Shown piece by piece: positions 38,769-49,956 of a stretch of 64,000 bases of DNA. The position numbers and the translations under genes were made by a program. Positions within the stretch are counted from its first letter, which is position 1, and each line of letters begins with the position of its first letter. This stretch comes from Dehalococcoidia bacterium (GTDB lineage Bacteria; Chloroflexota; Dehalococcoidia; Lucifugimonadales; QGNO01). The stretch lies in the NCBI GenBank assembly GCA_965197965.1, contig OZ240235.1, forward strand, positions 859,037 through 923,036, read 5' to 3'. The notes under the pieces are model-generated. The model saw only the letters and a program-made list of their open reading frames with translations, had not been told where the DNA came from and searched no databases.

Positions 38769-39500
38769 CTACTCTTCCCACCCAATCTCCCGCAAGAGCT
38801 CCCTGTCCTCCTTGGAGAGGTCTGCCTTCTTCAGCAGGTCAGGCCTTCGTTGCAGAGTGCGCTGCAGAGACTGCCGCCGCCGCCATCTGTCTACGGCCTG
38901 GTGGTCGCCGGAGAGCAGCACATCGGGAACTGTCCAGCCACGAAACTCGGCGGGGCGGGTGTACTGCGGGTGCTGCAATAGGCCGGACGCATGGGAATCA
39001 GCGGCCGCCGATTCGTCCGAACCCAGTACGCCGGGCAGCAGGCGGGCCACGGCATCGATGACCACCATCGCGGCAAGCTCGCCGCCGGTGAGCACAAAGT
39101 CGCCGATGCTCAGCTCCTCGGTGGCGAGATGCTCGCTTATCCGTTCGTCGAACCCCTCATAGTGGCCGCAGATCAAGGCGAAACGCTCCTCGCCGGCCAG
39201 GCGCTCGGCATCGGCCTGCTGGAAGACTCTGCCCTGCGGCGTCAGCAAGACCACCGGATATTGAGGAGGCGCGCCGAGAAGGGACTCGACAGCTTGGAAC
39301 AGCGGTTCGGGCTTGAGCACCATGCCTGGACCGCCGCCGTAGGCATAGTCATCCACGGTATGATGGCGGTCGGCGGCGTAGTCACGGAAGTTGTGCAGAT
39401 CTACGCTGAGCAGGCCGCGCTCGACGGCACGACCCAGAATGCTGCCTTGCAAAGGCCCCTGGAACATCTGGGGAAAGAGCGTGAAGACGTCGATTCGCAT
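38769..39500 (-). CDS. trmD: tRNA (guanine37-N1)-methyltransferase
   Basis: [38 protein letters not shown]. Confidence 0.97.
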
Positions 39501-39505
39501 GGCTT

Positions 39506-39925
39506 CTAATAGCGGGACAGCGCCTGGCGAAGCTCATCCGGCACCGGGACCGGTCTTCCACTCTCCAGACTCACGGTTACAAAGGCCATCCTGCCCTCGG
39601 CGGCGGCTGTGCCGTCCTCCTTTTCAGCGACGTAGCGGAGGCTGACCGACGTATTCCCCACTCTCTCCACGCTTACGCCCATCTGCAGCAGCTCGTCATG
39701 GAGGATGGGGACTTTGAAGTCGCAGCTTACGTGCACCCTGGGCAAGTCGAAACCCATTTCGCGGAAGCGGGCGCTGGTGAACCCCAGGGAACGCATGAAC
39801 TCGCTTTCCGCCACCTCAAAGAAGCGGAACATGGCGGTGTAATGTATTCTCCGCGAGGCATCGGTATCAACCCAGCGAACACGGACCTGCTGGCGAAAGC
39901 TAGGCGGTCTCTCTACTTCTGTCAT
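39506..39925 (-). CDS. Hot-dog acyl-CoA thioesterase (YbgC/4HBT type), likely DHNA-CoA hydrolase
   Basis: [17 protein letters not shown] motif; directly downstream of menA. Confidence 0.75.
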
Positions 39926-39958
39926 CTGCCTCCTAAACCTGTCATCTGCCTCCTAAAC
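39919..39958. repeat. Perfect 20-bp tandem duplication of stop, RBS and start
   Basis: CTGTCATCTGCCTCCTAAAC x2. Confidence 0.95.
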
Positions 39959-40888
39959 AAGGTACCAGTCGAATCTGCCCAGGCCAACCCCCAAAGCAAG
40001 GAGGACACCGTACCACCAGTGGAGGCTCGCCGATTGCCTGAGGCCGGTGAGGAAGGCGGGACGGTCGTTGCCGTATCGGAGGGTGCGCCAGGTCTGATAA
40101 GCCCTGGGCAAGGCGAGGAACGGCAGTAGCAGCAGAAGGCCCATGCCGCCAAAGACGGCGAGGGCCGCGGGCAGAGCGAATCCCGCCGCTGCCAACGCTG
40201 TCCATAGCGACCGGCCAAAGGGACGCCCCCACAGGGTGACCGGGGTGCTTTTTCCGGCTCTCAGGTCCTCTTCCCTATCCCGCAGGTCGTTGGCGACGAG
40301 GATAGCGGTGACCGTACAGCCCACACTGGCGGCAAGCAACAACGACTCCACGGTCAGGGTCTGTGTGTGCACGTAGTAAGTGCCCATCACCATTATCAAT
40401 CCCATGAAAACGAAGACCATAGGCTGTCCAATGGCGTAGGCGCCCAAAGGCCTGGGGCCTCCGGCGTAAAGATAGGCCGCGGCTAGACTTGCCAGGCTGA
40501 CAACCAGGATCGGCCAGCCGGTAACGGCCACGATGTAGAGGCCTGCGAGAGTAGCGAGGCCAAAGGAGATCAGTGCTCCTAGCTTCACCGCCCGCACCGA
40601 GAGCAGTCCCAGCGCTATCACCTTGTAGGGGGCTATCATCTTGCCCCCTTCCTCTACGCGCCCATGGTCCGAATACTCATCGACCAGGTTGGCGCCCACC
40701 TGCACCAGGAGCGACGCTACCAGGATGAGGACGAACAATCCGGGATCGGCCAGGCCTTCCCGGAAGGCGAGCGCAGAGCCAACGAGAACGGGTACCACGG
40801 ATGCGGGCAGTGTAAAGGGGCGCGATGCCCTGTACCAGACACCCGGCTTGCTCCATAGCGAAAGGGTTGACGCTGCTCTTTGCTCCAC
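39953..40888 (-). CDS. menA: 1,4-dihydroxy-2-naphthoate prenyltransferase
   Basis: RPFTLPAS, NLVDEYSD, YAGGPRP, ANDLRDREED; start assigned to GTG 40888 just after the menB stop. Confidence 0.9.
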   Translation of the reverse strand: MEQRAASTLSLWSKPGVWYRASRPFTLPASVVPVLVGSALAFREGLADPGLFVLILVASLLVQVGANLVDEYSDHGRVEEGGKMIAPYKVIALGLLSVRAVKLGALISFGLATLAGLYIVAVTGWPILVVSLASLAAAYLYAGGPRPLGAYAIGQPMVFVFMGLIMVMGTYYVHTQTLTVESLLLAASVGCTVTAILVANDLRDREEDLRAGKSTPVTLWGRPFGRSLWTALAAAGFALPAALAVFGGMGLLLLLPFLALPRAYQTWRTLRYGNDRPAFLTGLRQSASLHWWYGVLLALGVGLGRFDWYLV

Positions 40889-40899
40889 TTTTTGATGAC

Positions 40900-41697
40900 C
40901 TACCAGGGATGATGCCGAAAGCTGTCGAAGTTGGGAGCGCGCTTCTCCAAGAAGGCGTTGCTGCCTTCTCTGCATTCGTCCGTGGTGTAGTAGAGGGCAG
41001 TAGCTCCGTGGGCCATGTTCTGTATGCCGTATACGTGGTCGGTGTCCGCATTGAATCCGTGTTTGAGGAACCTCAGCGCGGTGGGACTCTTCTCCAGCAG
41101 CTCCCGGCTCCACTCCATGACGGTGGATTCAAGCTCGGACTGAGGCACCACGGCGTTGACCAGCCCCATGCGTAGCGCTTCCTCGGCCGGATAGCGGCGG
41201 CAGAGGTACCAGATCTCGCGCGCCTTCTTCTCGCCGACGATGCGAGCCAGGAAAATAGCGCCGAACCCGGCATCGAAGCTGCCGAACTTGGGGCCTATCT
41301 GCCCGAAGACGGCCCTATCCGAGGCGATAGTGAGGTCGCAAAGCACGTGGAGCACGTGTCCCCCGCCGATAGCGTAGCCGTCCACCATTGCGATGACCGG
41401 CTTGGGAATCTCGCGGATCAGCCTGTGCAGATGGGTGACCTGCAGCCGAACGCCGCCGGCTTCGTCCTGGTAGCCGCCTTCTCCGCGGGTCTTCACGTCG
41501 CCGCCGGTGCAGAAATTGCCGTTTTCGCCGGTGAGCACCACAACGCCCACCTTGGAATCGTTCCAGGCGTCCTGGAAGGCGTCCCGCATCTCGTCGATGG
41601 TCAGGGGGCGGAAAGCGTTGAGCACTCGCGGGCGATTGATCGATACTTTTGCCACGCCGCCTTCCTTTGTGTAGATGATGTCCTGATAGTCGTCCAT
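40900..41697 (-). CDS. menB: 1,4-dihydroxy-2-naphthoyl-CoA synthase
   Basis: [43 protein letters not shown]. Confidence 0.96.
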
Positions 41698-41716
41698 AGG
41701 TTCCTCCAAAAGTGGG

Positions 41717-42913
41717 TTAGATAGCTCCTGCGTCGCGCAACCGTGTGACCTTGTCCCCGGATATACCCAGCAAACAGTCCAATATCTCGGAGGTATGCTC
41801 ACCCAAGCCGGGCGAAGGCCCGGCGGGGCCAGTGGCTGCTTGGCTGAAGTTGAACGGTGTATTGGCCACCTTCCAGGTTCCCTTGGAGCTGTGCGGTATC
41901 TCGGCGATCATGCCGCGGTGATTGACCTGTGCGTCTTGAGCTACGTCGGCGATGCTGTTCACGGGGCCGCAGGGGATATCCCCTTCCGTGAGCACGGACA
42001 GCCAGTGCGATGCGGTTTTTTCCAAGAACAGCTCATCCAGCAGGGGAGCCAGAAGAGCATCGTAGCACTCCATGCGGTCGCGGTTGGTCTGGAAGCGCGC
42101 GTCCGCGGCGAGGTCCGGGCGGTCTATGGCCTTGCAGAAGCGATGCCACACGGCGGGATCGTCGCTAAGCAGAGCCACGACGAAGCTGCTATCGCTGGCC
42201 TGGAATATCTGGAACGGCGCGGCGACGGGGTGCCTTGCGCCAATGGGGCCCGGGACTGCTCCGGTAGAGAAATAGCGGGAGAGGGCGTTTTCCATCATCA
42301 TCACCTGGCAGTCCAGCATGGATATGTCTATGTACTGTCCCTGTCCGGTGGCCTCGCGCTGGTAGAGAGCGGCCAGTACAGAGAGAGCGGTGAATACTCC
42401 GGCAATGCTGTCTCCCAGAGATGCGCCGGGACGTGTCAGCGGGCCGTCCGGCTGGCCGGTAACGCTGATGAGTCCGCCCATGGCCTGCACCACTATGTCC
42501 AGGGCCGGGCGCTGCGACTCCGGGCCGTCCTGCCCGAAACCGGAGATGGCGGCGTAGATAAGGCCGTGGTGCAGGCTCTTCACGCTTTCATACTCCAGTC
42601 CAAATCGGGCCATGGTGCCCGGTACAAAGTTCTCAACGAGCACGTCACAGTGAGGGAGCATGGAGCGGACCAGTTCCTGTCCCTCTTCCGAAAAGAGGTT
42701 AACCGTGATACTTTTCTTACCCCGGTTGATGCTTATGAAATATGCGGCTTCATCTCCCACCAATGGTCCCAAGTTCCGTGCCGGATCGCCCTGGCCGGGG
42801 CGCTCTATCTTGATCACGTCCGCGCCCAAATCCGCCAGGATCATGGTGCAAAACGGTCCGGCCAGAAGCCTGGTCAGGTCAAGGACTCGTACGCCGCTCA
42901 ATGGTCCGGTCAT
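41717..42913 (-). CDS. Class III CoA-transferase (CaiB/BaiF family)
   Basis: [52 protein letters not shown] (catalytic Asp position), LGEHT; GGAGGAG RBS. Confidence 0.93.
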
Positions 42914-42955
42914 CCCACTCCTCCAATCCGGTTTAAAGAAATCCGGTTCAACGAT

Positions 42956-44077
42956 ATGAAAGTAGAACGCGTTTCCTGGCAAGGTTTCTCTATTCCATTC
43001 CGCAGGCCGTACGTTACCTCGCAGGGGGTATCCGCCACGCGGTATGGGCTTCTGCTGTTCCTCCACGGCGACGACGGTTCCATAGGCATGGGAGAGGCAT
43101 CGCCGGTGGGGGCAGGCAGCCGGGAAGAGGTGGAGGCTATTGGGGCATCCCTTGGCGAAATGGCGCCGCGGCTCCTGGGAACCGAGCCGTCAGCCACGGA
43201 GAACCCTCCTCTGCCGGAGTGGAACGCGCCACCCGTTCTGCGGTTCGGGATAGAGACGGCTCTACTTGATCTGCGGGGCAAGGCGCTGATGCGCAATGCC
43301 AGCGAGCTGTTGAACGGAGTTGCCAGATCCCTGCCGGTCAACGCTCTCATAGCAGCGGAAACGCCCGGAGAAGCCGCCGCGGAGGCCAAGGATGCGGCCG
43401 GCGCCGGGTTCAGAACTATCAAGTTGAAGGTGGGGCTTGAGTCCGCAAAGCAGGATGAGGCTCTTGTCTCAGCGGTGCGCCAGGCGGTTGGGACGGAGAT
43501 CAAAGTGCGCATAGACGCCAACCGGAAGTGGGGCCTGCCAGAAGCCATCGCCGGGCTGCGCAGACTGGAACAGTACGACATTGAATACGTGGAGGACCCG
43601 CTCAGGAGGGACGATACGGCCGGTCTAGCCGAATTGCGACGCTCCGTTGGGATCCCGGTGGCGGTAGACGAAGCGCTGGGAACCGCGGACAGAACGCAAC
43701 GCCTAGCAGTGGCGGATAGCGCGGACGTACTGGTGATCAAGGCGGGACGGCTGGGCGGACTGAAAGAGGCGCTGGAGCTGATGCGGCTGGCCGAGGACAG
43801 AGGCAAGGGGCTGGTGGTGACCTCCTCCTTGGAATGCGGAGTCGGCCTGGCGGCCAGCGTCCACCTAGCGGCAACGCTGACGGCACACCCCTTTGCCCAC
43901 GGGCTGGCCACGGCGGCGTCGCTGGAAAGCGACCTGCTTTCGGCGTCGTCACTGCCCTGGAGGGGCAGCGTGATGACTCCGGCCGGGCTCGGCCTGGGCG
44001 TATCGCTGGACGGCAGCCTTCTGGAGAGGTACGGCATAGACGTAGCGGGCTCCATCACCGGGAGGCCACCGGGGTAA
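42956..44077 (+). CDS. menC: o-succinylbenzoate synthase
   Basis: Enolase superfamily: GEASP, TIKLKVG, RIDANRKW, YVEDP, AVDEAL, VIK, SSLECGVG, HGLAT; located in men cluster. Confidence 0.87.
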   Translation: MKVERVSWQGFSIPFRRPYVTSQGVSATRYGLLLFLHGDDGSIGMGEASPVGAGSREEVEAIGASLGEMAPRLLGTEPSATENPPLPEWNAPPVLRFGIETALLDLRGKALMRNASELLNGVARSLPVNALIAAETPGEAAAEAKDAAGAGFRTIKLKVGLESAKQDEALVSAVRQAVGTEIKVRIDANRKWGLPEAIAGLRRLEQYDIEYVEDPLRRDDTAGLAELRRSVGIPVAVDEALGTADRTQRLAVADSADVLVIKAGRLGGLKEALELMRLAEDRGKGLVVTSSLECGVGLAASVHLAATLTAHPFAHGLATAASLESDLLSASSLPWRGSVMTPAGLGLGVSLDGSLLERYGIDVAGSITGRPPG

Positions 44078-44888
44078 GGACTTCTTCCAGGAATCCCGTC
44101 ACCGTGCGTTCGAAGATTTCGGGCTGTTCCAGGTGGACGGCGTGTCCGGCCTCGGCAACCGTTTCCAAACGGCTGGTTGGTATTGCCCGCCGCATTTCGC
44201 GGGCTATGCTGGTGAACTTTTCGTCTTCTTCGCCAGCAACTAGCAGCGCTGGCGCAGTGATCTCTTCAAGCCGGTCATGGAGTGGCGGTTGAGCGCCGGT
44301 GCCCACGCCCCTGAGGCTGTTGGCCAGCCCGCAAGGGTTGTTGCGCAGGCGCTGGTATCTCAAACCGTCGCGGATAACCGCGGGCAGGCGTTTCTGGCTG
44401 TGCCAAAGCGGTAGTGATTCCCAGTACTCCACGAACCGTTGCACGCCAACCTCCGCGATCCAGTCAGCAAGCGCCTCGTCTTCCCGTATGCGCTGTCGTC
44501 TTTCTTCCGCCGCGGCTATGCCCGGAGAGGCGCTTTCCAGGACAAGCGCCTCGGTGTGTTCCGGCAGAGCAATGGCGGCGCTAAGCGCTATGCGCCCACC
44601 CAGTGAATAGCCCAGCCAGGCAACCCGCTCAAGGTCCAGCCGGTCCAGAATCTCGGCCAGGGCCTGGACGTGGCGCTCCATGGTATACAGTCGGGAGTCC
44701 TGCGGAGAGTCCGATGCGCCGTGGCCGGGCAGGTCTACGGCAACTACTGTGAAACAGGTCCCGGAGGCCTGAGAAAACGACCGCCACGTTTGGACGCTGC
44801 CAGTGAAGCCGTGGATAACTACCAGGACAGGTCCACGGCCCGTCATCTCAACGTTCAGCTCCGCCCCTTCCAGAGCGCTAAGGGCCAT
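44055..44888 (-). CDS. menH: SHCHC synthase
   Basis: IHGFTG, GYSLGGR, LESASPG, RRQRIREDEAL, AGHAVH. Confidence 0.92.
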   Translation of the reverse strand: MALSALEGAELNVEMTGRGPVLVVIHGFTGSVQTWRSFSQASGTCFTVVAVDLPGHGASDSPQDSRLYTMERHVQALAEILDRLDLERVAWLGYSLGGRIALSAAIALPEHTEALVLESASPGIAAAEERRQRIREDEALADWIAEVGVQRFVEYWESLPLWHSQKRLPAVIRDGLRYQRLRNNPCGLANSLRGVGTGAQPPLHDRLEEITAPALLVAGEEDEKFTSIAREMRRAIPTSRLETVAEAGHAVHLEQPEIFERTVTGFLEEVLTPVASR

Positions 44889-44898
44889 TCGAGTCAAG

Positions 44899-46686
44899 CT
44901 ATGTTCTCCTCCCCGCTCTAATCTCCGCGGACACCGTCTCCCACACCTCTCGATGCAGCGCCACGTTGCGTTCACGGTCGCCGTGCGCCTCTATGAGGGT
45001 GATGCCGCTGCCCGCCAAGCTTTTCTGCACGCTCCGGTCGAACGTTTCCCAGTCATCCGCCAGCGAATAGTCAAGACCGTACATTTCAGCGGCGGCGCGG
45101 AAGGTCAGCCCGTGAGGCGTCCCGAAGTAAGTTTCGAAAACATCCTGATAATCCGCTTGGGGCAAGAAGGAGAATATGCCGCCGCCGTTATTGTTCAGCA
45201 CAATTATGGTGGCGTCCAAGCCGTGTGCCTTGGCGGCCAGCAGCCCGTTCATGTCGTGATACAGCGAGATGTCGCCAATGACAAGTACAACCCTTTTCTC
45301 TGAAACGGCGGCCACTCCCAAAGCAGACGAGACGACGCCGTCTATGCCACTGGCGCCGCGATTGGCCATGAAACGGATGGAGCCGTCGGTGGAAGGGAAG
45401 AAGGAGTCCATGTCGCGTATTGGCATGCTGTTGCCGGCAAAGAGAACGGAGTCGTCTGGAAGCAGTGCGGCCAGACGGCTGAACACCTTGCCTTCAAACA
45501 TTTCGCCGCATTCATCCAGTGCCTCATCCAGGGCGGCGCGTGAGGAGCCGGCGATGCGCCGCCAGCGCCTGCTCCACTCTCCGTCCGAACGCCCGACGTG
45601 CAACGCCGGCGAAAGGGATTCGCAGAAAAGCGCCGGCGAGACAGGGAAAAGCTGGGATGTCAAACGGAACGGGTCGCGCCAGTCGTGGCTCTCGTCGACC
45701 AGTATATGCCGCGCCTGCTTGTTCTTCTCCAGGTATTGCGTAAGCGGTTTGGACACCGGCAAAGCGCCCAGGCGGATCACCAGCTCCGGGGCCAGGGAGT
45801 CCGCTAACTCATCGTCGCGAATGAAGGCATCGTAGTTGTCGATAACCAGCGACCTGTCGTGAGGGCCGCAGCGTACGCCGGACAAGGCGTCCGCCAGCAG
45901 CGGATAGCCCAGCTTCCAGGCCAGTTCAGTGACCGCCTCCGCCTGCATAGGCCCGTTCTGCGGTCCGCATACGATAAGGCCGCGCTCCGTCCCGGCCAGA
46001 TCGGCGGCAAGTCGTTGCACATCTTCTAGCCGGGGCCTTGACTCGTAGTCCGGGCTGAAGACGAATGGCCTACCGTCTTCACGGCCATGCCAGGCCGCCA
46101 TGTCCTGCTCCGGAACCGAAGCCGGGAAATCGGAAGGGGTGGCCACAGGCTCCAGAGGCTCGCGGAAAGGGAAATCGACGTGTACGGGCCCCGCAGGCGC
46201 AGACCCTGCACTGAAGTAAGCGCGGCAGGCCACTGACCTTGTATAGGACATTATCTCCGTGGTGGCTTCCGGCGGCGGCATGTTCACCGACCACTTGACG
46301 TGGCTTCCATACATGCGGGTCTGGTCGATGGTCTGCAAGGCTCCCCAGTCCACCATCTCCGGAGGTCTATCCGCGGTGAGAGCCAGCAGCGGTACGGAGC
46401 CATAACGCGCCTCAACCACCGCGGGAAAGAAATTGGCGCTGGCCGTACCCGACGAGCAGACCAAGGCCACCGGCTTACCCGTGGCGCGCGCCATGCCCAG
46501 TGCGAAGAAAGACGCCGAACGTTCGTCCAGGTGGACCCACGTCCTGATGCCGGGATGGCGTGCGAAGGCAATGGCCAGGGGTGAGGAACGAGAGCCCGGG
46601 CAGATGCAGACGTGCTCCAATCCGCAACGGGCCAGCTCGTCTATGAATGCGCCGGCGAGAGCGTAGTTCCTGTTCTCGAAATCCAC
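44899..46686 (-). CDS. menD: SEPHCHC synthase
   Basis: CPGSRSSPL, DERSASFFALG, TADRP, GNSMPIRD, NRGASGIDG, GDISLYHD, NNNGGGIF; GTG start at 46686 (ORF track uses 46701). Confidence 0.96.
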   Translation of the reverse strand: MDFENRNYALAGAFIDELARCGLEHVCICPGSRSSPLAIAFARHPGIRTWVHLDERSASFFALGMARATGKPVALVCSSGTASANFFPAVVEARYGSVPLLALTADRPPEMVDWGALQTIDQTRMYGSHVKWSVNMPPPEATTEIMSYTRSVACRAYFSAGSAPAGPVHVDFPFREPLEPVATPSDFPASVPEQDMAAWHGREDGRPFVFSPDYESRPRLEDVQRLAADLAGTERGLIVCGPQNGPMQAEAVTELAWKLGYPLLADALSGVRCGPHDRSLVIDNYDAFIRDDELADSLAPELVIRLGALPVSKPLTQYLEKNKQARHILVDESHDWRDPFRLTSQLFPVSPALFCESLSPALHVGRSDGEWSRRWRRIAGSSRAALDEALDECGEMFEGKVFSRLAALLPDDSVLFAGNSMPIRDMDSFFPSTDGSIRFMANRGASGIDGVVSSALGVAAVSEKRVVLVIGDISLYHDMNGLLAAKAHGLDATIIVLNNNGGGIFSFLPQADYQDVFETYFGTPHGLTFRAAAEMYGLDYSLADDWETFDRSVQKSLAGSGITLIEAHGDRERNVALHREVWETVSAEIRAGRRT

Positions 46687-46687
46687 C

Positions 46688-48085
46688 TCAGCCCTCACCA
46701 AGGGCCTTGAGCAGCGGCTGGAACTTCAGCTCGGTCTCTTCAAACTCACTCCGGACATCGGACCCTTCCACTATGCCGCTACCGGCAAAAAGCGTGGCCT
46801 GGTCCCCCTGCAAGAGGGCGGAGCGAATGGCCACGCTGAACTCACCGTCGCCTTCATGGTCCAACCAGCCCAGGGGAGCGGCGTACCAGCCGCGGTCTCC
46901 TTCCAGACGCCGGATTAGCTCCAGGGCAGCTCCGGTCGGTGTGCCGCCAAGGGCGGGCGTAGGGTGCAGTAACTGGACTATGTCAAGGATGTCGCGGTTG
47001 GAGCCGAGGCGTCCATGGAAGGATGTCCTCAGATGCTGCACGTTCCTTAGGTATGCAATGTCAGGCTGCCGGTTCCAATGGAGCTCGCTGCAGGCGTTGC
47101 TCAGCGCTTCAGCCAGCATGCTGACCACCGCCCCGTGCTCACGTCGCTCTTTGCCGCTGGCCAGCAGCTCCCGGCCCAGCCGTTCGTCCTCTTCCGGGGT
47201 ACTGCCTCGCGGAGCGGTCCCAGCGAGGCAGGAGAGGGCCAGCGCGCCCTTCTGCAGACGCACCAGCTCCTCCGGGGTGGCGCCCAGGAACGTTGAGTCG
47301 CCGTTGTCCACGGCGAACACGGTACATTGAGGATACGAATCGACGAGCCTGTCCAGGGCTGTAAGAGGAGAGAAATCGCCGTCGCCCAGCAAGGTGCGCC
47401 GGCGAGCCAGCACAACTTTGCTCAACCCACCGTCTTCAATCGAGCCAAGGGCCTGCTCCAACCACTCCTTCCACCGGCTATAACCGTCGGCGGAGTCGAG
47501 TAGGACCCTGGGCTGCGGTTCAGCCTGGAACTCGACCGAAGTCAAAGCGTCTATCATTGTCGTTGCTTGGTGGGTTTCCAATTGTGGGTCTGTCTCAGGG
47601 GAGACCAGCAGATTGGCCGTCATCCAGGCCTCGCCTTTCGATTGGGTGAGGAGAAGCCTGGGCAGCACTAGGCCCGCGTCGTGGAAACCCGCCCACAACG
47701 GACGCCTCTCGGCGAGGGGGTCGAAGCGTACGCCGCCGGTAAACACGGGACCGACGCCCCGCCTGCCGGCGCCCTGGATGATCGCCGAGTCCAGCAGGGA
47801 GGCAAGGGATTGCCGCATGGCCTCGATAGGACGTTCACCGTTCGCTTGGAGGACAGCGGCTGCGCCGCTTCCTACCATCCAGAAGCCGTCGTTGGGTCTG
47901 GCCCAAAAGCTGCGCATGCCCCATCTCTTGGCGGCGGCAAAGAAGGCCAGCGGATCGGGCGGCGCTTGCAAAGGCCAGGCGACGCTAACCAGCACGGGAC
48001 GGCCCAGCGATGCGGCTCGCTGGTGTCCCTCAGCAAACCACGATGCCAGCTGCACCGGTTCCAGCTCTGCGGCGGGAGGTCTCAT
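46688..48085 (-). CDS. menF: Isochorismate synthase
   Basis: KVVLARR, FLGATPE, CLAGT, KERREH, LHPTPALGG, RGWYA, AGSGIV. Confidence 0.93.
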   Translation of the reverse strand: MRPPAAELEPVQLASWFAEGHQRAASLGRPVLVSVAWPLQAPPDPLAFFAAAKRWGMRSFWARPNDGFWMVGSGAAAVLQANGERPIEAMRQSLASLLDSAIIQGAGRRGVGPVFTGGVRFDPLAERRPLWAGFHDAGLVLPRLLLTQSKGEAWMTANLLVSPETDPQLETHQATTMIDALTSVEFQAEPQPRVLLDSADGYSRWKEWLEQALGSIEDGGLSKVVLARRRTLLGDGDFSPLTALDRLVDSYPQCTVFAVDNGDSTFLGATPEELVRLQKGALALSCLAGTAPRGSTPEEDERLGRELLASGKERREHGAVVSMLAEALSNACSELHWNRQPDIAYLRNVQHLRTSFHGRLGSNRDILDIVQLLHPTPALGGTPTGAALELIRRLEGDRGWYAAPLGWLDHEGDGEFSVAIRSALLQGDQATLFAGSGIVEGSDVRSEFEETELKFQPLLKALGEG

Positions 48086-48714
48086 GAACGGTTCTCTCCA
48101 CCCATAGCGAGCAAGGCGGGCTCCATACCGATGCTTCTGAGCAGCGCGGTGCGCAATACGGGGGTCGCCTTGGTCAATGGAGTGGGCCTGCCGGTAAGAA
48201 GCCAGCGCACGATGATTTCGTACAATGCGCCGAACCAGATGTGTGCAATCAACTCGGTGTCCTGCGGCTCAATCTGGCCGAGGGCAACCGCATCGTCCAG
48301 CTCTTTCTTGATGAAGGCGGAGAACCGCTCTCGCATGGGAAGGAACTTTGTGTCGCTGGCCTTTCCGTGCCCCAGCACGTTGAGAAGGAGCACCTGTGCT
48401 ATCTTGCGCTGCCTGGCAAAGGTGGAGAGCAACGATTCGATGCCGGCGGCCACCCTGTGCAGCGGTGTAGGTTCGTGGCGGATGTTGCTCAAGGTCTTGT
48501 CGATGAGCTTCTGGCTCATGCGATCGACAAGGGCCACGACCATCTTCTCTTTGCTGGGGAAGTGGAAGTAGAAGCTGCCCTTGGAAGTGCCGGACATATC
48601 CACTATCTCTTGCACACCTGCCCCCGTGTACCCGTGCTGGGCAAGGACGTCCAGAGCGGCTTCCAAGATACGCTCCTGAGCATTTGCCGAATCTAGAGTG
48701 GACGTTCTGGCCAT
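48082..48714 (-). CDS. TetR/AcrR family transcriptional regulator
   Basis: ILEAALDVLAQHGY...SKGSFYFHFPSKE HTH; ATGA overlap with menF. Confidence 0.92.
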   Translation of the reverse strand: MARTSTLDSANAQERILEAALDVLAQHGYTGAGVQEIVDMSGTSKGSFYFHFPSKEKMVVALVDRMSQKLIDKTLSNIRHEPTPLHRVAAGIESLLSTFARQRKIAQVLLLNVLGHGKASDTKFLPMRERFSAFIKKELDDAVALGQIEPQDTELIAHIWFGALYEIIVRWLLTGRPTPLTKATPVLRTALLRSIGMEPALLAMGGENRS

Positions 48715-49026: not shown

Positions 49027-49956
49027 ATGGCGGAGCGCGACGATGCAGGCGCGGCAGCGTACGCGAAGACGATCAAGGATCCAAAGCCCTTGGACCCGGC
49101 CTTTGCCGCCGAGCGACTGAAAGAGGTCAAGCGCGTTTTCGACGAACTGGGCGTCTTCTTCTGGCTGAGCTCAGGCACGTGCCTTGGTGCCGTCCGCGAG
49201 GGGCGCTTCATACCCTGGGACGACGAGATGGACACGGCAGCGGTCATCGGGATGCACGGCCTCACTATCGAGACACTCGACCGGGTCGCCGAGGCGTTCA
49301 GAGAGCGCGGCTTCTACTGCCCTATCGAACACAACTCCCGCTACTCCATCGTCAACTTCATAAAGGACGGCGTCAGGGTGGACTGGACCTGCCACCATAT
49401 CGTCAACGGCAAGGCCTATCAGTTCCCTGGAATCGAGCTGCCTCTGAGCCTCTTCGAGCACCCGAGAGAGATCGAGTTCATCGGCGAGAAGTTCCGAGTT
49501 CCGGACCCGCCCGAGGAATACCTGCGGCTGAAGTACGGCCCCGAGTGGCGAACACCGAAAGGGCCTGGCTTCGAATCGGACGTCGTCATGAAGATCAAAG
49601 ACGGCACACTGCTCAGCCGGGCCCGTAGACTCCAGCGCGCCATCACCATGGGCCGGCTGCCGCGCCCCAACATTGGCTTGCGGGTCTTCAATCGTGAGGG
49701 GGAGGCGGTCAGCGGTGCGGACGTCATCGTCGCAGGAATAGGCCGCACGACGACCGACGCCCAAGGCCGGGCCAGGTTCTTCGTGCCGGACGAGGCCTAC
49801 TACGCAGTGATCGTGGCGTATCCCGGCCACAGGGAGATCCTCTACGGGGAAGTGCTTACTCCGGGGGCCGGCTACACCTACCGTCCCGGCCCCATCGTGA
49901 CTCCGGAGGAGCATTACAAAGCGGGCGTGCGCGCGCTGGCGCTGGTCAGGGAATAG
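49027..49956 (+). CDS. LicD/fukutin-family nucleotidyltransferase with C-terminal beta-sandwich domain
   Basis: GTCLGAVREGRFIPWDDEMD, PEEYLRLKYGPEWRTP; C-terminal GEAVSGADV...TTDAQGR. Confidence 0.8.
   Translation: MAERDDAGAAAYAKTIKDPKPLDPAFAAERLKEVKRVFDELGVFFWLSSGTCLGAVREGRFIPWDDEMDTAAVIGMHGLTIETLDRVAEAFRERGFYCPIEHNSRYSIVNFIKDGVRVDWTCHHIVNGKAYQFPGIELPLSLFEHPREIEFIGEKFRVPDPPEEYLRLKYGPEWRTPKGPGFESDVVMKIKDGTLLSRARRLQRAITMGRLPRPNIGLRVFNREGEAVSGADVIVAGIGRTTTDAQGRARFFVPDEAYYAVIVAYPGHREILYGEVLTPGAGYTYRPGPIVTPEEHYKAGVRALALVRE

Follow-up and report, generated by a model that had tools for sequence, protein, structure and literature searches.

A family III CoA-transferase encoded beside menB as the probable replacement for MenE in a Dehalococcoidia bacterium

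The menaquinone gene cluster of a Dehalococcoidia bacterium includes a gene for a family III CoA-transferase, which, with a probability of roughly 0.6, functions as an o-succinylbenzoate (OSB) CoA-transferase, probably using succinyl-CoA, and takes the place of the ligase MenE. This assignment draws on sequence comparisons. The genome consists of one contig (C1) of 2.55 Mb, and the window, that is, the whole stretch of 64 kb analysed here, corresponds to C1:859037-923036. Despite this single contig, marker genes put the completeness at 94.8%. The cluster comprises the following features (window coordinates; for men genes, bit scores are followed by the cut-off of the model):

39506..39925, minus strand: hot-dog (4HBT) thioesterase, candidate DHNA-CoA hydrolase (PF13279, 40.2 bits; PF03061, 38.2 bits)
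39953..40888, minus strand: menA, DHNA polyprenyltransferase (TIGR00751, 140.6 > 102.15; PF01040; likely GTG start at 40888)
40900..41697, minus strand: menB, DHNA-CoA synthase (NF005637, 407 > 380; TIGR01929, 366.9 > 342.7)
41717..42913, minus strand: family III (CaiB/BaiF-type) CoA-transferase, 398 aa (PF02515, 418.6 bits)
42914..42955: divergent spacer between the CoA-transferase gene and menC, 42 bp, read from the sequence
42956..44077, plus strand: menC, o-succinylbenzoate synthase (TIGR01927, 140.8 > 130.55)
44055..44897, minus strand: menH, SHCHC synthase (TIGR03695, 274.7 > 208.55; start at 44897 or 44888)
44899..46686, minus strand: menD, SEPHCHC synthase (TIGR00173, 487.7 > 244.2; start uncertain, 46686-46701)
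46688..48085, minus strand: menF, isochorismate synthase (TIGR00543, 334 > 224.75; PF00425, 247.6 bits)
48082..48714, minus strand: TetR-family regulator (PF00440, 56.1 bits)

The men gene calls were judged against curated NCBIfam cut-offs, and menF, menD, menH, menC, menB, and menA of the classical o-succinylbenzoate pathway all scored above them. The hot-dog thioesterase remained under the cut-off for TIGR00051 (58.6 vs 68.7 bits) and reached just 33.6 bits with MenI_Staph; its gene follows menA in loci of the same family and in genome G026. A homologue of UbiE/MenG is encoded outside the cluster (C1:993736-994428, 180.6 bits). An earlier note on this DNA had listed the same men genes and the thioesterase, and this inventory stands, except that menC had to be moved to the plus strand. 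The minus-strand open reading frame at 42910-44058 (382 aa), considered as menC, had no Pfam match even at E ≤ 10 and is a low-complexity shadow ORF. Alone among the men genes, menC lies on the plus strand, with its 3' end converging on and overlapping that of menH. Therefore, menC and the CoA-transferase gene are divergent, with 42 bp between them; the adjacency of the two genes described before is correct, on opposite strands. In the spacer, GGAGGAG precedes the ATG of the transferase gene, and AATCCGGTT occurs twice (42925-42933 and 42940-42948); a single copy of this motif is present in same-genus loci. Scanning for promoters and terminators yielded 4 promoter-like sites vs 2.1 ± 1.7 expected, too small an excess to be informative. 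The TetR gene, with a likely ATG start at 48714 in a frame open to 48777, is the first gene of the TetR-menF-menD-menH unit and also stands at the head of the cluster in orthologous loci.

The earlier observation that menE is missing from the window was reproduced, as no AMP-binding (PF00501) gene occurs in these 64 kb, and the absence extends to the whole genome. Only two PF00501 genes were found in the entire 2.55 Mb at E ≤ 0.01, both at C1:737-744 kb. These are an acetate-CoA ligase (Acs; NF003313, 882 > 729) and an Aas-like fusion of 837 aa with AMP-binding, PP-binding, and acyltransferase domains. The best genomic match to the MenE model TIGR01923 was 136 bits vs a cut-off of 330. A class-specific MenE HMM, trained on 22 men-linked MenEs from this class and run against the six-frame translated genome at E ≤ 10, matched Acs and the Aas-like fusion alone, with 246 and 200 bits vs 565-785 bits for the training MenEs. 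The futalosine pathway was not detected either: no MqnA/MqnD-family (PF02621) match was obtained in the genome at E ≤ 0.001, and four control genomes were positive. Given the lack of both MenE and the futalosine pathway, the formation of OSB-CoA is the sole step that has no assigned gene. Enzymes of CoA transfer are represented by 21 PF02515 genes, namely the men-linked one and 20 more, with 9 tandem pairs located elsewhere in the genome. Also, one ADP-forming acyl-CoA synthetase (C1:1961572-1963091) and SucCD are encoded, and neither a class I CoA-transferase (PF01144) nor an acetyl-CoA hydrolase/transferase (PF13336) was found in the genome.

The men-linked transferase covers the whole PF02515 model (1-366 of 366) and has no other Pfam family. 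Its TAA stop codon is located 19 bp ahead of the menB ATG, as reported in the earlier note for an intact CaiB/BaiF gene, and menB has its own GGAGGA Shine-Dalgarno site. With dN/dS values of 0.04-0.15 vs same-genus orthologues, the gene is intact and under purifying selection. In family III enzymes, the active-site Asp carries acyl and CoA intermediates, as known for formyl-CoA transferase. The corresponding residue, Asp168 (LGDSIAG), aligns with Asp in the solved proteins 10uh and SUGCT (9br7) and is invariant in 66 sequences, 20 from the men-linked clade described below and 46 from its sister clade. The transferase matched 35 PDB sequences of the PF02515 family at E ≤ 1e-20, and its similarity to solved members of this family, which is characterised by an interlocked homodimer fold, is high (best E 6e-91). 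The nearest was 10uh, labelled 'formyl-CoA transferase' (308 bits), followed by human SUGCT (293 bits); transferases thus score about 290-308 bits, vs 134 for alpha-methylacyl-CoA racemases and 102 for 2-methylfumaryl-CoA isomerase. The protein remained under the NCBIfam equivalog cut-offs for succinyl-CoA:mesaconate (317.9 < 700), succinate-glutarate (308.4 < 750), CoA:oxalate (291.9 < 522), formyl-CoA (277.7 < 504.2), and L-carnitine (138.1 < 413) CoA-transferases, and so under every one compared.

In a tree of 125 proteins (a quick LG+G4 search, in which the G026 protein takes a long branch and has an unusual composition), the 20 men-linked transferases group together in a single clade (SH-aLRT 98). 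The clade, from uncultured Dehalococcoidia, spans 8 family codes and identities of 42-100%; given its small size and the relatedness of its members, we count these 8 family codes and not 20 independent events. A MenB gene (≥50% identity) lies within 3 kb of 19 of the 20 members, with the transferase always upstream and on the same strand, and the remaining member, on a 2.6-kb contig (L179), is also arranged as menC<-transferase->menB. Two gene orders occur, namely menH> <menC transferase> menB> and, in G026, L192, and L193, menH> transferase> menB> menA>. The adjacency of the transferase to menB thus survives rearrangement. On genome contigs, all 13 loci at ≥57% identity were men-linked, as against none of 67 at 43-54%. 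On metagenome contigs, 13 loci at ≥55% identity were found; menB was directly downstream in all 11 with room for it, the other two contigs ending too early, and no true menB was near any of the 67 weaker (<55%) loci. The apparent truncation of the transferase gene in G009 is a 100-N scaffold gap. Four transferases with 52-55% identity (G285, G227, G052, and G081), considered as men-clade members without menB, are nearer to the sister clade (63-100% vs 54-56%), and no men genes occur near their loci.

The transferase and MenE do not coexist in any searched genome. MenE above the cut-off is present in 49 of 401 genomes of the class (354-422 bits) and adjoins menC in the men cluster in all 20 sampled genomes that have it. 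The men-clade transferase was found in 5 of the 401, all of them with menB and none with MenE, and in none of the 261 class genomes that lack menB. Among 41 relatives, the transferase stands beside menB in 16, and MenE above the cut-off is found in none. The conservation of this adjacency in relatives and its negative association with MenE, both proposed as tests in the earlier note, are evident across the orthologous clade. Thus, neither of the two genomic outcomes that the note would have taken as refutation, a true menE elsewhere in the genome and a lack of conserved linkage to men genes, was observed.

The immediate sister clade consists of 46 Dehalococcoidia family III proteins (SH-aLRT 99), which are about 50% identical to the men clade; none of the 46 is men-linked. 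Unlike the men clade, it occurs in many class genomes whatever their menB or MenE status; in family f41, for example, a sister-clade transferase is present in 25 of 25 genomes and menB in none. Its neighbouring genes show no conservation across the clade and are shared by at most one close group (13-16 of the 46 loci). Both clades conserve 87 positions at ≥95%, Asp168 included, and only five positions distinguish the men clade from the sister clade (D129, Q185, A239, R258, and N277).

Some complete men clusters of the Dehalococcoidia have neither MenE nor the men-clade transferase nearby. These are found in families f56 (5 loci), f73 (3), and f85 (2) and in genomes G066, G178, G284, G385, and G108; of 56 MenE-less genomes sampled, at least 11 have a cluster holding upper-pathway genes. 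Clustering of 4072 ORFs and a Pfam scan revealed no ligase or transferase in the vicinity of these clusters. Therefore, another route to OSB-CoA exists in the class, which could also operate in the genome examined here, and the lack of MenE alone does not identify its replacement. In all four full f56 loci, a family III gene of a separate clade is located 0.8-2.3 kb beyond the TetR gene, on the same strand and with TPR genes between. A protein family of about 260 aa, enriched near the menB genes of MenE-less genomes, was discarded as a candidate; its loci have no other men genes, and L157:5314-6111, the single member that was scanned, encodes a short-chain dehydrogenase.

MenE, a member of the ANL superfamily (TIGR01923), would share with the men-linked transferase the product, OSB-CoA, and the pathway position, which follows MenC and precedes MenB. 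The folds are unrelated (PF00501 vs PF02515), and the transferase does not qualify as a member of the MenE family. MenE uses ATP and forms an adenylate, whereas the transferase would take CoA from another thioester. The positions of the genes differ as well: in class relatives, menE closes the men cluster, downstream of menC, and the transferase gene stands upstream of menB. The best characterised matches to the transferase are SUGCT (9br7), the succinyl-CoA:mesaconate enzymes (NF041294, 318 bits), and NF052585 (308 bits). SUGCT and the mesaconate enzymes have in common with it the full-length domain, the conserved Asp, and the single-gene form. With equivalog cut-offs of 700 and 750, these scores fall far short, and the men-linked protein is therefore not an orthologue of NF041294 or NF052585. 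An aryl-keto dicarboxylate is proposed as its acceptor, and its context is biosynthetic, vs catabolism or carbon fixation for the SUGCT and mesaconate enzymes. With succinyl-CoA as the donor, the family III enzyme BbsEF activates an aromatic derivative of succinate. The earlier note had named it as an analogue; the nearest characterised relatives are instead SUGCT-like and of the succinyl-CoA:mesaconate type. BbsEF (9fn0; succinyl-CoA:(R)-benzylsuccinate CoA-transferase) is distant from the men-linked protein (149 and 122 bits to its two subunits). It is composed of two different subunits and resembles the 9 tandem family III pairs of the genome more than the men-linked gene, which stands alone.

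In the proposed mechanism, the transferase would convert OSB, the product of MenC, into OSB-CoA, the substrate of MenB, by taking the CoA from a thioester that is already present and would thus spend no ATP. It would thereby act in this lineage as a non-orthologous replacement for the adenylate-forming ligase MenE, an idea already put forward in the earlier note and supported here by comparative genomics. We infer OSB as the acceptor from the position of the gene alone. The donor is most likely succinyl-CoA, because the closest characterised relatives of the enzyme are transferases of the succinyl-CoA:dicarboxylate type and OSB is activated on its succinyl chain. The transfer itself would be near equilibrium and may be drawn forward by the irreversible ring closure of MenB and by thioester hydrolysis. 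Any of the 20 other family III transferases or the ADP-forming synthetase could also act on OSB.

A variant in which the transferase takes CoA from DHNA-CoA, the product of MenB, and loads it onto the next OSB appears unlikely. The segment from OSB to DHNA would then need neither ATP nor a net input of CoA thioester, and the thioesterase or succinyl-CoA would merely start or drain the cycle. In its broader form, the classical pathway would run without MenE in many Dehalococcoidia; the men clade would be the first identifiable of several independent MenE replacements, and the clusters with neither gene, as well as those of f56 with their different family III gene upstream of TetR, would use other transferases.

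The position beside menB would suit an enzyme acting on the product of MenB as well as one acting on its substrate. The transferase might therefore serve another step of the pathway, passing CoA from DHNA-CoA to succinate or another acid and so replacing or aiding the thioesterase; OSB-CoA would then come from the ADP-forming synthetase, which is indeed encoded at C1:1961572-1963091, from a paralogous transferase, or from a promiscuous Acs. Most men-clade loci outside the family of this genome (L026-L030, L178, L194, and L229) have no thioesterase in the cluster, and the clusters with neither gene point to another OSB-CoA route in the class. However, the hot-dog thioesterase already covers this step in the family of this genome and in G026, and the sole missing step would stay unfilled. 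Also, the transferase never occurs together with MenE, an avoidance not to be expected of an enzyme that acts on DHNA-CoA, and we regard this role as improbable. Little credence is given to a connection by chance, with an ordinary dicarboxylate CoA-transferase inserted once beside menB and inherited since, and another enzyme activating OSB. Chance neighbours are to be expected where 21 PF02515 genes occur in one genome and up to about 180 first-look candidates in related ones; the men-linked copies, all in one clade, may trace to a single insertion, and men clusters do exist with neither gene. A passenger gene should, however, have been lost or moved in some lineages. Instead, adjacency is kept from 100% down to 42% identity, in 8 family codes and with either gene order, and the clade is never away from menB (20/20 in the tree, 11/11 metagenome loci with room). 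Its absence from all 261 menB-less class genomes and the dN/dS of 0.04-0.15 also speak against a passenger.

That a true MenE was missed, either in unassembled sequence or as a protein too divergent for the models, is very improbable. The marker completeness of 94.8% leaves room for such a gene. TIGR01923 exceeded its cut-off in only 4 control genomes, although menB did so in 7, and the men-linked MenEs of family f30 score just about 301 bits. Against this stand the single 2.55-Mb contig and the PF00501 and class-specific HMM searches, which yielded only Acs and the Aas-like fusion. Moreover, the two-ligase pattern is repeated in the family of this genome (f1): of its 12 other genomes, 11 show nothing beyond an Acs-type match of about 136 bits or weaker, the exception being G010 with one extra generic match of 248 bits far from its men cluster. 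Where the class does have MenE, the gene is part of the men cluster (20/20).

In the literature, MenE has been regarded as an invariant step in classical menaquinone synthesis, and the enzyme is a target of antibacterial research. A full-text literature search, at the level of titles and abstract openings, returned nothing on a CoA-transferase that makes OSB-CoA or replaces MenE. If the proposed role is correct, the price of OSB activation would be no more than one thioester vs the conversion of ATP to AMP, which would fit a lineage with 21 family III transferases and two adenylate-forming ligases only. It would also define a new substrate class for family III CoA-transferases. Pathway-completeness calls for metagenome-assembled genomes of SAR202-like Dehalococcoidia, which would be scored as menaquinone-incomplete, could then be corrected. 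Since men clusters devoid of MenE are a frequent occurrence in the Dehalococcoidia, the question of OSB-CoA formation extends beyond the men clade.

Re-analysis of the window bore out the gene list and coordinates of the earlier note: menF, menD, menH, menC, menB, and menA are all present, and all six exceed curated NCBIfam cut-offs. They share the cluster with a family III (CaiB/BaiF, PF02515) CoA-transferase of 398 aa.

Genes of the men cluster in the window (coordinates, strand, gene, remarks)
48082-48714, minus, TetR-family regulator (profile search and start inspection)
46688-48085, minus, menF (above curated NCBIfam cut-off)
44899-~46686, minus, menD (above curated NCBIfam cut-off)
44055-~44897, minus, menH (above curated NCBIfam cut-off)
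42956-44077, plus, menC (above curated NCBIfam cut-off; oriented towards menH)
41717-42913, minus, family III CoA-transferase (start 42 bp from menC start)
40900-41697, minus, menB (above curated NCBIfam cut-off)
39953-~40888, minus, menA (above curated NCBIfam cut-off)
39506-39925, minus, hot-dog thioesterase
38769-39500, minus, trmD

The ATG of menB, which has its own GGAGGA site, lies 19 bp from the transferase stop. The transferase and menC do adjoin each other as described earlier, but menC is located on the plus and not on the minus strand. The minus-strand ORF 42910-44058 (382 aa), by its position the obvious place for menC, was rejected as such: it has no family match even at E<=10, its translation is Ser/Ala/Arg/Pro-rich junk, and the actual menC gene overlaps it in antisense. 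A second shadow ORF of 760 aa (41795-44077, plus strand) runs antisense through the CoA-transferase and then in frame into the real menC. Both occur in a stretch of ~62% G+C, and a gene caller could be misled by either one. Between the transferase and menC, the 42-bp spacer contains two direct copies of AATCCGGTT (42925-42933 and 42940-42948). Since the same-genus loci L018-L022 possess only one copy in this spacer, that of the window represents a short local duplication. The repeat could be an operator for the cluster's TetR. Just past the TetR gene, a 309-aa ORF (49027-49956, plus strand) displays an unusual pairing of a short N-terminal LicD-family match with a CarboxypepD_reg-like domain.

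The absence of MenE, the ATP-dependent o-succinylbenzoate (OSB)-CoA ligase, from the window had been pointed out in the earlier note; it extends to the whole genome, which is assembled in a single contig of 2,551,711 bp (marker completeness 94.8%). The best TIGR01923 score was 136 bits (cut-off 330). Only two genes genome-wide, both ~120 kb from the window, matched PF00501 at E<=0.01, namely an acetate-CoA ligase (NF003313, 882 > 729) and an 837-aa Aas-type fusion of AMP-binding, PP-binding, and acyltransferase domains. The same two were the only matches (246 and 200 bits) in a six-frame search at E<=10 with a class-specific MenE HMM, built from 22 MenE proteins whose genes lie in men clusters of this class; these training proteins score 565-785 bits, which is high by construction. 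Neither class I CoA-transferases nor members of the acetyl-CoA hydrolase/transferase family were found in this genome. It encodes one two-subunit ADP-forming acyl-CoA synthetase (C1:1961572-1963091) and SucCD. Family III CoA-transferases number 21 in 2.55 Mb, 18 of them arranged in 9 tandem pairs that may encode two-subunit enzymes similar to BbsEF, and 3 as single genes including the men-linked one. Given 21 such transferases versus two adenylate-forming ligases, CoA transfer seems to be the usual mode of acid activation in this lineage. The genome encodes a UbiE/MenG homologue, and no MqnA/MqnD-family protein was found in it; therefore, the classical pathway is the only visible menaquinone route. 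The formation of OSB-CoA is its sole step without an assigned enzyme.

The adjacency of the transferase gene to menB recurs in relatives. Among 41 genomes of the same order, including that of the window, 17 possess menB above the cut-off. A transferase orthologue is located directly upstream of menB, by coordinates, in 13/13 genomes of the window's family; the apparent truncation in G009 is due to a 100-N gap. The same position is occupied in G029 (65% identity) and G026 (43%; 42% by BLAST), while in G040 the orthologue (63%) lies 1.8 kb from menB. The remaining menB-containing relative, G023, has neither a transferase orthologue nor menD. A 71%-identical orthologue occurs in a MAG labelled SAR202-VI-29A. 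In species-representative genomes, men linkage was observed for 13/13 loci with at least 57% identity versus 0/67 loci with 43-54%. Metagenome contigs contributed 13 loci with at least 55% identity, and menB follows directly downstream in all 11 with room for it; one of the other two contigs ends 62 bp past the gene, and one ends inside the gene, with menC and menH upstream. None of the 67 weaker metagenome transferase loci contains a true menB. The adjacency is retained in both observed gene orders, menH> <menC transferase> menB> and menH> transferase> menB> menA>, the latter in G026, L192, and L193. The dN/dS values of the transferase versus same-genus orthologues are 0.04-0.15.

Phylogenetic analysis of 125 family III proteins (quick IQ-TREE, LG+G4, SH-aLRT only) drew on species-representative and metagenome loci, fetched neighbourhoods, and those paralogues from the window's genome that passed an 85%-coverage filter. 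The men-linked proteins form one clade of 20 (SH-aLRT 98), including the protein of G026, which is long-branched, and that of G147; the 2.6-kb contig of the latter reads menC<-transferase->menB. Carriers of this men-clade have eight family codes (f1, f15, f18, f29, f31, f38, f79, and f110). Its sister clade (46 members, support 99) has no men-linked members. The only interrupted men-clade member is that of G040, where a 561-aa ORF without Pfam match (L178 11292-12977, plus strand) separates the transferase from menB. In L152, an unrelated transferase (28% identity) neighbours a MenB-like gene (51% identical) that has no other men genes around it; it was left out of the men-linked count. In four f56 genomes (G060:C1:1537505-1538650, G256:C5:1012498-1013646, G177:C1:1605635-1606783, and G242:C1:2040912-2042072), the sister-clade gene is interrupted by one in-frame stop codon (TAA or TAG), which may indicate a pseudogene or a sequencing error.

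Of 401 class genomes, sampled evenly, 140 contained menB (E<=1e-85); the unpublished G283 contributes to these tallies as one genome among the 401 and has no other role. MenE scores were bimodal: 49 genomes reached 354-422 bits and the rest had at most 318 bits, except for G046 with a linked copy of 328 bits. The men neighbourhoods of 20 of these 49 genomes (L158-L177) all follow the single-strand order menF-menD-menH-menB-(menA)-menC-menE, with menH undetected in L161 and menC in L171. In none was a hot-dog thioesterase detected within ~10 kb of menB; in G026 and the window's family (L018-L024, L157), this gene comes directly after menA. Two f30 genomes possess a divergent MenE, still inside the men cluster. 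The men-clade transferase (at least 59% identity) was detected in 5/401 genomes (G000, G042, G084, G367, and G147), all with menB and none with MenE above the cut-off; matches of 52-55% identity were rejected as belonging to the sister clade. As for the anticorrelation with menE envisaged earlier, no searched genome has both genes. Since the genomes are related, we offer counts and no statistical test.

The transferase has a full family III domain. In alignments, Asp168 coincides with the Asp conserved in the two top-scoring proteins of solved structure, and it is invariant in 66 sequences; in formyl-CoA transferase, this residue carries the covalent intermediates. Among characterised proteins, the transferase comes closest to succinyl-CoA-dependent dicarboxylate transferases, with 293 bits to SUGCT, 318 bits to the NCBIfam succinyl-CoA:mesaconate model, and 308 bits to the succinate-glutarate model. 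As these scores are far under the equivalog cut-offs, the protein is in none of the named NCBIfam families. BbsEF, the analogy offered in the earlier note, is more distant (149 bits). No source names the 36-member 90%-identity protein cluster of the transferase, and a full-text literature search, at the level of titles and abstract openings, found no CoA-transferase forming OSB-CoA or replacing MenE.

Of the two carboxylates of OSB, 4-(2-carboxyphenyl)-4-oxobutanoate, MenE activates the aliphatic one. Because this carboxylate belongs to a succinyl chain, and by analogy with the nearest relatives, the most likely reaction would be succinyl-CoA + OSB -> succinate + OSB-CoA. The enzyme would move CoA from succinyl-CoA to OSB, and the irreversible cyclisation by MenB, together with the clustered thioesterase, would pull the transfer equilibrium forward. 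In a bolder, less probable scheme, the enzyme would return CoA to OSB from DHNA-CoA, the MenB product.

Some men clusters have neither gene. MenE above the cut-off was lacking in 91 menB-containing class genomes (G046, with its linked near-cut-off copy, excluded), and 58 menB neighbourhoods were fetched from 56 of them (1-2 per genus, other members of large genera dropped). These 56 comprise 2 with divergent MenE, 4 with the men-clade transferase, 39 with menB alone or menB-menA, and 11 with upper-pathway men genes but neither gene (five f56, three f73, two f85, and G066).

Loci with upper-pathway men genes and neither gene nearby
L110-L114, f56
L136, L137, and L141, f73
L144 and L145, f85
L124
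L183-L186

Pfam scans of the flanks of such clusters revealed no OSB-activating candidate. Of 16 menB(-menA) genomes searched for menD, 12 have none despite being 93-99% complete; these carry a menB-menA pair, often with TetR (G165, G216, G326, G023, G260, G062, G143, G124, G195, G212, G088, and G114), and possible explanations are salvage of OSB or DHNA, or another use of MenB. The other four carry menF-menD-(menH)-(menC) elsewhere, with no ligase or transferase adjoining. In 4/4 full f56 loci, another family III gene is found upstream of TetR and in the same orientation (L110 16729-17940, L111 1815-3077, L112 239-1471, and L113 16895-18127). It is 32-36% identical, forms its own clade, and is separated from TetR-menF-menD-menH by one or two TPR-repeat genes; the arrangement could reflect either a second recruitment or chance.

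Given that men clusters lacking both genes exist, Dehalococcoidia have another way to obtain OSB-CoA, which might in principle operate in the window's genome as well. Mainly for this reason, we put the probability that the men-clade transferase replaces MenE as an OSB CoA-transferase at about 0.6 and no higher. Every computational test run supports this candidate function, which is drawn from sequence comparison. In the proposed scheme, a known enzyme family would take over a known step of the menaquinone pathway.
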